A stretch of DNA of 32,082 nt from Octopus sinensis (taxonomy: Eukaryota), in NCBI RefSeq assembly GCF_006345805.1, contig NW_021829642.1, positions 1-32,082 of the forward strand. The letters run 5' to 3'. The notes under the pieces are model-generated. The model did no database searches and was not told the DNA's origin. It worked only from the letters and a program-made list of their open reading frames with translations. This document shows, piece by piece, positions 3,196 to 31,340 of this stretch; position 1 is the stretch's first letter; each line of letters opens with the position of its first letter. The position numbers and the translations under genes are program-made.

Positions 3196-3360
3196 CTTCC
3201 AAATGTCTGCAGAAGCACAGCGAGCTCGCGGGAGGGGTTAAAGAGAATAGGCCTTATTTTATCGAACTCTAAAGAATGAAAAGCAAAGTCGACCACGGCG
3301 GAATTTGAACTCAGAGCGTACACACGTACGGAATGCTGCTGAGTACTTTACCCGCCGTCT
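3196..3360 (-). mobile_element. SINE type B, degenerate
   Basis: gaatgaaaagcaaagtcgaccacggcggaatttgaactcag is the reverse complement of the type B core tgagttcaaattccgccgaggtcgactttgcc. Confidence 0.75.
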
Positions 3361-4020: not shown

Positions 4021-4467
4021 GATATATACATGATATATGTATGTGTTCATGTTTATTCGTACTGATGTCATTCTACATATTCAATAAGATGCAATATGGC
4101 GCCCTCTCAACTTTAACACTTCTTACGAGCAATAAAATTCGATGCCCAGCTATTTTATCATTCTTGCTTATATACTTGAATGGATTCGGTTGACATCTCT
4201 TCTTTTACGATTTATTCTTACAAATTGCCATTGAGTTAATCAACTTTGGTTATGAGCCTACATAAGTCTTAAACATCGTAACATATAGCCAGATACATAA
4301 CCATTTGGTTTGCTAAAAATAGTAGCTGTATGCCTCTAAAATTGTACTATACATTGCAAAAAGAGAAGCACACTTTTGATACGTGACAACCTCTTGTTTC
4401 ATTTTATAAACTCTATCATATAATATGGTCTAAATTAAAACTTTCCATCAAAATTTCTTTTTAATTT

Positions 4468-4749
4468 GAGTGGCTGTGTGGTAAGGAGCTTGCTTATGAA
4501 CCACATGGTTCCGGGTGCAGTCCCACTGCGTGACACCTTGCGCAATTTTCTTCTACTATGGCCTCGGGCCGACCAAAGCCTTGTAAGTGGATTTGGTAGA
4601 TGGAAAGTGAAAGAAGCCCGTCGATATATATATATATATCCTTAAATACTTAAAAATGTTTTAGCCCGAAGGCCGCGGCCATGCTGGGGCACCACCGCTG
4701 AAAATCAAGTTCCCATGCCGGGAATCGAACCCGGGCCGCCTGTGTGGAA

Positions 4750-8689: not shown

Positions 8690-8705
8690 TGCATATATAT
8701 GTATA

Positions 8706-8736
<31 letters not shown>

Positions 8737-8846
8737 CACACATATATAAATATATACATATATAATATATACATGTATGCATATATACGTACATGTGCAT
8801 GTGCATATATATATATATATACATGTATGCATGTATATGTGTATGC

Positions 8847-8877
<31 letters not shown>

Positions 8878-9020
8878 CATAAATATATATATACATAAAT
8901 ATTTACATATATACATAAATATATATATACATATATATATATTATATATATATATGTGTATATATATATATATATATGTATGTGTGTATGTATGTATATA
9001 TGTATGTATATATATATATG

Positions 9021-9076
<56 letters not shown>

Positions 9077-9083
9077 CACATAT
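8690..9083. repeat. Long interrupted (TA)n microsatellite
   Basis: Directly visible. Confidence 0.95.
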
Positions 9084-9300
9084 AAAGTTAATCCAAACAT
9101 GAAAACACAAAGAGAAAAGAAAAATAACGCGAGGACGTGGAACAAGTATGGTGTTATTGGACGCTCAGGAAAGGAAAGGAAGGAGGACTTAACATTTCGA
9201 GCGGAGCTCCTCTTGAGAAACATTGGAAAAGGAAAATCCAAGGAAGGGAAGACGGAGGAAAAATTCGCCAACGATATACCTAACAAGAAACATAACATGT
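9084..9300 (-). mobile_element. ~210-bp non-autonomous element, Penelope-like pLTR-derived, copy 1
   Basis: Collinear with 29964-30170, same start aaagttaatccaaaca after (TA)n; contains a minimal hammerhead motif on the minus strand. Confidence 0.7.
9187..9221 (-). ncRNA. Minimal type I hammerhead ribozyme, core-mutated
   Basis: Minus strand GTTT CTCAAGA G GAGC TCC GCTC GAAA T GTT AAGT; CUGANGA has G5 changed to C; stem II GAGC/GCTC intact. Confidence 0.55.
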
Positions 9301-13128: not shown

Positions 13129-13545
13129 CAAGCATGGTTGTGTGGTAAGAACTTTGCTGTTCAGGGTTCAGTCCTACTGCGTGTCTCCTTGAGCAAGTGT
13201 CTTATACAATAGCCTTGGTCTAACCAAAATCTTGTGAGTGGATTTGGTAGACGGAAACTGAAAGAAGCCCATCATGTATGTATGTATATATATATATATA
13301 TATATATATGCCTGCATGCGTCTTTGTGCTTGTGTTTGTTTCCCATCAACGCCTGACAAGACAACGGGTGTTAGTGTGTTTATATCCCCGTAATTTAGCA
13401 GTTCGGTAAAAGAGACCAATAAAATAAGTACCAGGCTTTAAAAAATATGTTCTGGGGATCGATTTGTTCAAATCAGAGTCTTCAAGGTGGTGACCCATCA
13501 TGGCTACTATCTAGTGAATGAAACAAGTGAAAGATGAAAGATAAA
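13129..13545 (+). mobile_element. Full-length SINE type A
   Basis: Collinear similarity to the other type A copies; tail gtgaaagatgaaag. Confidence 0.9.
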
Positions 13546-14167
13546 TTATATATTGGGCGTATAAGAAAATGGTCCGAGCAGCGGAATGCTAGACGCGCAG
13601 TTGTTTCTCGTTGGGCTTTTGCCAATCTTATATACTTACAGCCAAACACATGTCAAGAAGAAATCTACCGCCACCGACATAGGAAAACAGTGAACGCACA
13701 ATCACTGGTGTTGTATGTAGCCACCCGGCAGAACATAAATCCCTCATTTGTAACTAAAGCACTGTTTCAATTAAAAAAATCTATTTGTTTATTATATTTA
13801 ATGTTTAAATATCGTTAGAGCAAACTTACGTCTGTCTTCGTCTACTCGTACTCTATCATACTGTGCTTGAAAATATAATGTTTATCGAAAGTTGTTTTTG
13901 CAGCGACATGTCAGAAAGATGGATGCATATCTGCGTCCTTAGGCTTCGTCAGCAGCATGTGCTCACTGCCAACCATAATGCTAAGACGACATCAATCACC
14001 ACTGATGTCTACGTGTGTGTTTGCGCGTGTATTAAGTGTGTATATAGATATTTTCATAATATGGGAACACACACACATTCACACATACACCAACATTATG
14101 AATATAATATGATATGAATATGTGTGTATATATATAGATCGATGTACAAATATATATATATATAATC

Positions 14168-15463: not shown

Positions 15464-15610
15464 TAAGGCGGCGAATTAGCAAGAGTTCTGAGTTCAAATT
15501 CCTCTGAGATCGACTTTGCCTTTCATTCTTTCAAGATCGATAAAATAAGTAACACTTGAGTGCTGGCGTTGGTGTAAACGTCTTATACCTCCCCCTGAAA
15601 CTACTACCCA
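15464..15610 (+). mobile_element. Internally deleted SINE type B
   Basis: aaggcggcga head and tgagttcaaattcc...tcgactttgcctttcat core. Confidence 0.8.
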
Positions 15611-19098: not shown

Positions 19099-19520
19099 CA
19101 GGCGTGGCCTTTTGGTAAGAAGCTTGCTTCCTAATCATTTGCTCTGTATTCTGTCCCACTAGGTGGCTCCTAGGTAGAGGCGCGTGACTTTGTGGTTAGG
19201 GTGTCAGCATCATGATCGTAAGATTGTGGTTTCGATTCCTGGACCGGGTGACGCGTTGTGTTCTTGAACAAACCACTTCAGTTCACTTTGCTCCAGTCCA
19301 CTCAGCTGGCAAAAATGAGTAACGCTGCGACGGACTGGCGTCCCGTCCAGCAGGGGAACATATACGCCATAGAAACCGGGAAACGGGGCCCATGAGCCTG
19401 ACTAGGCTTTAAAAGGACGAAAAAATGAGAATATGAGCTAACTCTTGATACTTTGGCCACGTTTCTTTTAACAAAGCCTTGGGTCTTGATAGGTAGGGGA
19501 ACTGAAAAACAGCCTGCCAT
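19099..19520 (+). mobile_element. SINE type A head interrupted by a type C SINE
   Basis: Type A head at 19099-19177 resumes at ~19470-19520 (acaaagccttg...gaactgaaa). Confidence 0.65.
19178..19420 (+). mobile_element. tRNA-derived CORE-like SINE type C
   Basis: A-box gtgactttgtggttagg, B-box gtttcgattcc, CORE-like gttgtgttcttgaacaaaccactt, then ctgcgacggactggcgtcccgtccag; antisense copy at 27085-27270. Confidence 0.8.
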
Positions 19521-21489: not shown

Positions 21490-21757
21490 TATAATCATGG
21501 GGTCATGAGTTCGATACGTAGCAACGTATTGTGACCCTCAGCAACACACTTTATTTCACATTACTCCAGTCCACGTCTTTTAAAATGGCCAGCCACCCCA
21601 TACCCTTGAGTTCAAATTCCGCCGAGGTCGACTTTGCCTTTCATCCTTTCGGGATCGATAAATTAAGTACCAGTTACGCACTGGGGGTCGATGTAATCGA
21701 CTTAATCCGTTTGTCAGTACTTCTTTGTCCCCTCTATGTTTAGCCCCTTGTGGGTAA
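21490..21757 (+). mobile_element. Degenerate type C head (21490-21575) followed by a well-preserved 5'-truncated type B SINE (21605-21757)
   Basis: gagttcgatac...cactttatttcacattactccagtccac; tgagttcaaattccgccgaggtcgactttgcc...tagccccttgtggg. Confidence 0.8.
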
Positions 21758-21761
21758 TAAT

Positions 21762-22020
21762 GAAACAGATTCTCCTTTTTGGGTTTCATCGAATTTTTCA
21801 AATTCCAATTGCAAAGGAAAATGAAGATGGAGACTTCCTGCGTTCCAACAAATTTGTTGAAAGATGGGTGAGGGTGAGGAGCATGGTGCGAAATGAAGTA
21901 TTCTGAGCATGCAACCTGTAGATTGAACGAAAACAACAAAAAGAGACCGGTGGTAGTGATCAGGCTGACGATGTTTTTTTTTTGTCTTGTTTTGTATTTT
22001 TATTTTATTGTCTACGGGTA
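21762..22020 (+). mobile_element. 3' end relic of a Tx1/L1-clade LINE (ORF2 C-terminus and 3' UTR)
   Basis: FIEFFKFQLQRKMKME, frameshift, then SNKFVERWVRVRSMVR, stop, T-rich UTR; F...W terminal motif typical of L1/Tx1 ORF2 (assignment from memory). Confidence 0.5.
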
Positions 22021-29931: not shown

Positions 29932-29963
<32 letters not shown>

Positions 29964-30170
29964 AAAGTTAATCCAAACAAGAAAACACAAAAAAACACAA
30001 CAACGTGAGGACGTGGAACAAATATAGTATTATTGGACGCTCAGGAAAGAAGGAAAGAAGGAGGGCTTAACGTTTCGAGCGGAGCTCTTCGTCCGAAACA
30101 TAGGAGAAGGAAAGATCCAGAGAAGGGAAGGCAGAGGAAAAAAATCGCCAAAGGTACACACGAGGTCACA
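29964..30170 (-). mobile_element. ~210-bp non-autonomous element, Penelope-like pLTR-derived, copy 2
   Basis: Collinear with 9084-9300; flanked by (TA)n and (GA)n(GATA)n. Confidence 0.7.
30065..30099 (-). ncRNA. Minimal type I hammerhead ribozyme, core-mutated
   Basis: Minus strand GTTT CGGACGA A GAGC TCC GCTC GAAA C GTT AAGC; CUGANGA has U4 changed to G; palindromic ACGT stem III region. Confidence 0.6.
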
Positions 30171-30219
30171 TATATAATGAGAGAGAGAGAGAGAGATAGA
30201 AAGATAGATAGGTAGATAA

Positions 30220-30943: not shown

Positions 30944-31340
30944 AAAGTAGCTTGCTTACGAAACACATGGTTCCGGATTCAGTCCCACTGCGTGACACCC
31001 TGTGCAAGTATCTTCTACTATTGCCTCGGGCCGACCAAAATCCTTGTGAGTGGATTTGGTAGATGGAAACTGAAAGAAACCCGTCCTATATGTGTATATA
31101 TACATATGTGTGTGTGTATATATTTGTGTGTCTGTGTTTTTCCCCCAACATCTGTTGACAACCTATTTTAGTGTATTTACGTCCCTGTAACTTAGAGGTT
31201 CGGCCAAAGCGATCAATAGAATAAGTACTAGGCTTACAAAGAATAAGTCCTGGGGTCGATTCGCTCGACTAAACTAAAGGCGGTGCTCCAGCATGGTCAC
31301 AGTCAAATAATGAAACAAGTAAAAGAGTAAAGAGTAAAGA
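30944..31340 (+). mobile_element. Near full-length SINE type A
   Basis: Collinear with 4468-5070; tail gtaaaagagtaaagagtaaagag. Confidence 0.9.

Follow-up and report, generated by a model that had tools for sequence, protein, structure and literature searches.

Two octopus repeats carrying a minimal hammerhead motif are probably solo pLTRs of a Neptune-type Penelope-like retroelement

The minimal hammerheads of metazoan Penelope-like elements (PLEs), as described by Cervera and de la Peña 2014 (PMC4209133), are the closest published counterparts of the repeats reported here. Stem I is short in these motifs, A9 and G10.1 are separated by an extra nucleotide, G10.1 pairs with C11.1, and a palindromic CG replaces helix III; the motif is found in both pLTRs, and most examples are single, dispersed and tied to truncated PLEs. 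The octopus family shares each of these features. It differs in its dominant core, CCGACGA, since C at position 4 (C4) occurs in 0 of the 56 motifs in the Fig. S3 text of that paper, and in having as its 3' UTR a CA-rich tract of roughly 1.5–3 kb. The Neptune clade, as presented by Craig et al. 2021 (PMC8557442), is defined by a CX2-5CXXC linker, and its members have a C-terminal GIY-YIG endonuclease with CCHH, pLTRs, heavy 5' truncation and microsatellite targeting, all as in the octopus element, whose fetched copies, unlike the Neptune elements described, include none with an intact ORF. That source treats the role of hammerheads in PLEs as still open. In Drosophila, Penelope transcription is described as starting inside the element's own pLTR (PMC2377424). 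Animal non-LTR retrozymes (Li, Clavereau, Pollet 2026, bioRxiv 10.64898/2026.07.22.740005) are similar in being short non-coding units with a type I hammerhead related to PLE pLTRs; in that account they are defined by tandem units, whereas the octopus copies are solo and of the same kind as the pLTR of an ORF-bearing element.

The window analysed is a stretch of 32,082 nucleotides of Octopus sinensis DNA (contig NW_021829642.1). The first-pass annotation had noted two related short repeats in it, and these are about 200 bp long and homologous (9082–9279 and 29962–30159, 82.7% identity over 202 nt, E 6e-53), although homology of copy 1 stops near 9279 and does not reach 9300 as had been proposed. 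The copies are spaced 21 kb apart, and each is solo rather than tandem. Both start at the same base directly after (TA)n, as had been noticed. The TA runs, a (TA)n-rich run at 8693–9084 and a (TA)n run at 29932–29964, neither with an assigned strand, lie at the 3' ends of copies 1 and 2 respectively, and are likely insertion targets given the family-wide enrichment described below. Copy 2 (29965–30171, minus strand) is a solo PLE pLTR of the C4 (CCGACGA) subfamily. It is 91–93% identical to both pLTRs of the full-length copy L131, and differs from the pooled C4 majority at 9 of 203 positions and from the majority of the U4 (CUGACGA) subfamily at 16 of 203. Copy 1 (9084–9279, minus strand) is a slightly 5'-trimmed solo pLTR of the U4 subfamily, with 26 differences in 202 to the U4 majority and 37 in 199 to the C4. 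It is U-type at 15 of 18 diagnostic sites, and alignment to the pLTR of locus L222 agrees. A PLE ORF is absent from the window. Other dispersed short repeats are present at 3253–3358, 4467–4702, 13135–13553, 15485–15594, 19178–19414, 21607–21769 and 30944–31164; these are common to many of the fetched loci and are probably SINE-like.

The two copies share one hammerhead layout, in which stem I leads into a core of 7 nt; in both, an extra nucleotide then separates A9 from stem II, stem II has 4 bp and a loop of 3 nt, and GAAA, the CG palindrome centre and GUU follow. In copy 2 the minimal type I hammerhead, identified from the sequence and by a relaxed descriptor scan, occupies 30065–30099 of the minus strand. 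Its stem I is formed by 30099–30096 pairing with 30068–30065, followed by the core (30095–30089) with a private G at position 4 (30094), the extra A (30088), stem II (30087–30077) and GAAA (30076–30073) leading into the CG palindrome centre, with the predicted cut after 30069. This is the sole match of the relaxed scan in the window, and 3 shuffles of 45 other loci gave 0 matches. The decayed hammerhead of copy 1 (9187–9221, minus strand) was read from the sequence and is missed by a scan allowing one mismatch; it has C in place of G5, substitutions at position 7 and in the extra nucleotide and a broken ACGT palindrome, and is predicted to be inactive. The minus-strand cores are as read previously, CTCAAGA in copy 1 and CGGACGA in copy 2, and stem II and GAAA are indeed identical in the two copies. 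The 3' strand of stem I is AAGC as annotated in copy 2; in copy 1 it is AAGT.

The family motif has stem I, a stem II with a G-C closing pair, the extra nucleotide after A9, GAAA, a palindromic helix III and an NUH triplet, and its assignment as a minimal type I hammerhead agrees with the published PLE consensus. Closest is the Neptune motif of Acropora digitifera given in PMC4209133, in which the core plus extra A, the CG palindrome centre and 3 of the 4 stem II pairs are identical. General models did not recover it. There was no Rfam hammerhead in the window at E≤1, where the 116 matches were to miRNA and other families on simple repeats, nor in the tandem locus L115 at E≤10. Folding gave z-scores of -1.16, -0.49, -1.33 and 0.03 with best structures other than a hammerhead, and cofolding of the two L115 motifs did not yield the dimer fold. 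A comparison of column conservation between the hammerhead and its flanks (4/35 against 44/126, p=0.007) was rejected as circular, because the rows had been chosen by an exact hammerhead 27-mer. The pair counts, which carry the same selection bias, show changes on both strands in 1 of 8 pairs and no variation in 3 of the 4 stem II pairs.

In the 2.72 Gb genome searched there are 6,321 exact matches to the C4 27-mer and 2,501 to the U4 27-mer. A control 27-mer representing the other product of CpG decay has 216, and because this is so far below 2,501 the U4 copies are mostly a genuine subfamily; CpG decay as their origin in the main family was rejected. With the core left free, position 4 among the 100 matches listed, counted by hand, is C in 66, U in 33 and A in 1. 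A flanking diagnostic is present in 61 of these 66 C4 rows and in 1 of the 33 U4 rows, so that the two core states are tied to subfamilies. A further set of 30 copies, referred to below as unconditioned, was drawn from the 7,215 matches to a pattern that avoids the hammerhead (two C4 subgroups are excluded by it) and comprises 15 U4 copies, 14 C4 copies and 1 without a motif. Both position 4 states are present in contigs of all four runs, which is uninformative on expression. A C4 subgroup at L193, L195 and L197–L201 has a GUC cleavage triplet and one stem I mismatch, and no ORF-linked copy of this subgroup was found.

These counts bear on the earlier proposal that the two window copies complement one another to a CUGANGA core. 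This fails, since position 4 is C in 28 of the 29 genomic sequences nearest to copy 2, U in 1 and G in none, and the apparent complementation reads, from the sequences, as two independent decays within two subfamilies. The U4 subfamily has a CUGANGA core; the C4 subfamilies and both window copies lack it. The wider reading of a non-autonomous, ribozyme-processed retrozyme family with its core recovered by complementation can point to the canonical U4 subfamily (15 of the 29 unconditioned copies with a motif), but copy 2 derives from a C4 ancestor, no tandem arrangement of the unit is present in the window, other loci have it flanking an ORF, and insertions do not begin at the cut. It is largely refuted and we consider it very improbable. 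A non-LTR retrozyme in the sense of tandem units without a coding parent was likewise rejected, the window copies being solo and the unit being the pLTR of an ORF-bearing element.

Longer copies of the repeat continue into a common CA-rich tract. Full-length elements were reached by searches with an ORF-start piece, taken from one locus joining the repeat to a PLE ORF, and with a 5' UTR piece. In the 20 loci fetched by the ORF-piece search, a pLTR follows the CA-rich 3' UTR in 12 and directly abuts the 5' UTR in 6. Loci L129, L131 and L146 have pLTRs at both ends of a single ORF encoding, in order, PADKG, YIDD, CX4CXXC and GIY-YIG/CCHH, which bears out the suspected link to Penelope RT/GIY-YIG ORFs. 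The element layout is pLTR, 5' UTR, ORF, CA-rich 3' UTR and pLTR. The ORFs of all fetched copies are broken. Pfam matches to the ORF are RVT_1 (E 2.5e-4) and GIY-YIG (E 1.8e-3), both with scores under the curated cut-offs. Searching with a 443-aa piece of the ORF gave 319 relatives at E≤0.001. The top ones share about 50% identity with it and carry RT, PF26215 and in part GIY-YIG, and the named relatives are from sharks, corals and snails. The CX4CXXC linker between the RT and the endonuclease in the ORF copies is of the Neptune type, and because it fits the definition of that clade it indicates that the element belongs in Neptune, at the level of sequence; likeness to the published Neptune hammerhead would be indirect support for this placement. 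A Naiad PLE was rejected, as the endonuclease here is C-terminal to the RT, with GIY-YIG and CCHH, and a hammerhead is present.

Three further observations were made among the fetched loci. A rare C3-to-T change is shared by the two pLTRs of L131 (831–1018 and 6190–6381 in ORF-sense coordinates), as would arise if a single stretch of template had given rise to both. L101:4180–4689 corresponds to part of another PLE-type reverse transcriptase; this piece is unlinked to the pLTR family and has no Pfam match. In L115:1305–1970 and L122, two pLTRs separated by a short spacer occur naturally as a unit; their two hammerheads are 475 and ~675 nt apart respectively, and the units resemble retrozyme precursors.

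Ends of the unconditioned copies show how the repeats are likely to have been inserted. The preference for (TA)n proposed earlier is confirmed: 29 of the copies were examined and 27 of their 3' ends located, and (TA)4 is present within 25 nt of 25 of these 27, compared with a background of 6–8%. The GA/GATA flank that had been taken as a second family feature is not one, (GATA)5 being present within 120 nt of the 5' end in 0 of 118 sampled rows. The 5' ends of 23 of the 30 copies fall at offsets of -9 to +15, with 8 of these at -9 to -7; 4 others extend into the 3' UTR and 3 start further in. No start among the 30 lies from -141 to -10 or at the predicted cut (+102), so the processing by ribozyme that had been suggested has no support so far. 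The starts of short copies thus have a sharp edge, which precedes the predicted cut by ~110 nt, and this edge, with the lack of starts at the cut in the copies, suggests that uncut RNA was likely the template. Among internal-deletion junctions, which join the repeat to internal ORF or UTR pieces, 7 of 15 fall on this edge at -8/-9, or 5 of 13 once three sharing one junction are merged, and these are without TA microhomology. In full-length copies the 3' end of the pLTR is joined to the 5' UTR by a short, TA-rich stretch, as would be expected if priming used TA microhomology. The 5' edge sits within TCATTC, which we take to resemble an initiator element.

The solo pLTR could instead be a SINE-like non-autonomous element with its own internal promoter, using the proteins of the parent in trans. 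The sharp 5' edge, the large excess of short copies (4 of 30 reach the 3' UTR), the existence of the pLTR-spacer-pLTR units at L115 and L122 and a C4 subgroup, C-d, without an ORF-linked partner among the fetched loci would each fit with this. We nevertheless regard it as rather unlikely, for four subgroups match the pLTRs of ORF-bearing copies stepwise, as would by-products of the same masters. Of the non-autonomous family described in the first-pass annotation, what stands is possible self-propagation of solo pLTRs; the unit itself is the pLTR of an ORF-bearing element.

The preferred reading, to which we assign a probability of about 0.8, is that both window repeats are solo pLTRs of a Neptune-type PLE, the enzymes of which likely inserted them into (TA)n, likely from RNA uncut by the hammerhead. 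The RT and GIY-YIG endonuclease of the parent element would have placed solo pLTRs in (TA)n runs, with priming at the pLTR 3' end probably through TA microhomology. The 5' edge would be the transcript start of an internal promoter, and the reverse transcriptase would run to the 5' end of the uncut transcript. The hammerhead would be weak and is predicted to be dimer-dependent, any cleavage presumably requiring two pLTR motifs that pair via the ACGT palindrome. The U4 to C4 change would have occurred once in the main lineage and been tolerated.

Published activities are in agreement with copying of an uncut transcript. PLE minimal hammerheads are reported as having no activity as monomers and low activity as dimers (PMC4209133), U4C is reported to lower hammerhead activity considerably in vitro (PMC3088659), and single mutants in the CUGA region have low activity (PMC9901934). 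By analogy, U4C would be likely to weaken cutting by the octopus motif. The same substitution is known from a viroid hammerhead variant cited in Perreault et al. 2011 (PMC3088659), which as cited is a rare form of a tertiary-stabilised ribozyme, whereas octopus C4 is the majority state of a minimal motif in a multi-thousand-copy retroelement. A literature search, with incomplete coverage of published variant lists, found no report of U4C in PLE hammerheads, and the accessible portions of the literature on Penelope hammerheads in octopus yielded nothing on this pLTR motif.

The C4 hammerhead may even be catalytically dead, kept only by inertia or because it serves as a signal for structure or protein binding. 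Besides the low activities quoted above, the cleavage footprint in 0 of 30 copies would favour this, as would the spread of a sister pLTR family, B (L177–L191), to 17,105 exact matches in spite of a CUGUNGA (A6U) core. The viroid U4C variant is cited as having remained infective (PMC3088659), however, and distant C4 relatives retain the other core positions, the palindrome and the stem pairing, with stem I replaced by compensating letters. A dead motif is quite possible, if on balance improbable.

These distant relatives come from 45 metagenome loci of a related protein, in which a scan gives 9 motifs, 8 of them with CCGACGA. Where the ORF end is present (n=17) a motif was found by eye ~80–140 nt past it in 13 loci, with position 4 being C in 9, U in 2 and A in 2. 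Apart from position 4, this motif is identical to the Neptune motif published for Acropora digitifera. Stem I letters are wholly unlike those of the octopus family and pairing is preserved, and C4 in distant relatives with a replaced yet paired stem I would make C4 either recurrent or old in this PLE group.

Within the octopus family, 19 ORF copies arrange as a ladder in an unrooted tree, and an earlier 18-row tree agrees with this. C4 copies make up a 100/100 clade containing the shortest terminal branches (0.012–0.015), to which the U4-linked L222, L127 and L223 do not belong, and for this reason the sequences suggest a single U-to-C change followed by continued spread. L224 has a U4 pLTR yet falls within the C4 clade of the ORF tree and looks chimeric. 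The direction of change is taken from the unrooted ORF tree because pLTR divergence yields no clean age order: pooled C4 copies are more diverged than U4 (0.11 against 0.077), with overlapping subgroup medians. The pLTR tree has poor support and an unreliable root. C4 could also be ancestral, because C4 also prevails in an older sister family, whose loop has 4 nt (60 C4 and 38 U4 among 100 matches listed, by hand count); CpG decay may explain much of the U4 in that family.

In family B, any of the four bases can occupy position 7, and C-G replaces G-C as the outer pair of stem I. Its motif lies within 450 nt of 9 of 112 copies compared with 4 of 196 distal segments, and at L006, L016, L037, L056, L057 and L238 it is 200–240 nt upstream on the same strand. 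This proximity is likely due to shared (TA)n targeting. Mixed dimers with family B are a possibility on sequence grounds, the ACGT palindrome being common to both families. A match to family B in the window was rejected as a false positive from a loose pattern. A CTGAGCG motif, at 30036–30042 (minus strand) in the window and ~25 nt 3' of the hammerhead, is common to families A, old-A and B; its complementarity to the 3' strand of stem II makes a competing fold possible.

The octopus repeats are a real, minor variant of the known PLE hammerhead pLTRs. The present analysis contributes the parent element with its ORF, the ladder of subfamilies and the edge at the 5' end, and the gain is incremental because minimal hammerheads in truncated PLE ends have been in print since 2014 (PMC4209133). 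More tentatively, and in our judgement with the odds against it, U4C would be a working cross-phylum core of Neptune pLTRs missed by CUGANGA searches, a slow ribozyme suited to copying from mostly uncut RNA, and solo pLTRs would be complete copies from promoter start to pLTR end, maybe self-promoted SINE-like units. If U4C works and solo pLTRs are complete copies, solo pLTRs would map the transcript start. CUGANGA descriptors undercount PLE hammerheads, and the natural U4/C4 pair within an otherwise identical 35-nt motif makes the importance of cutting for these elements directly testable.
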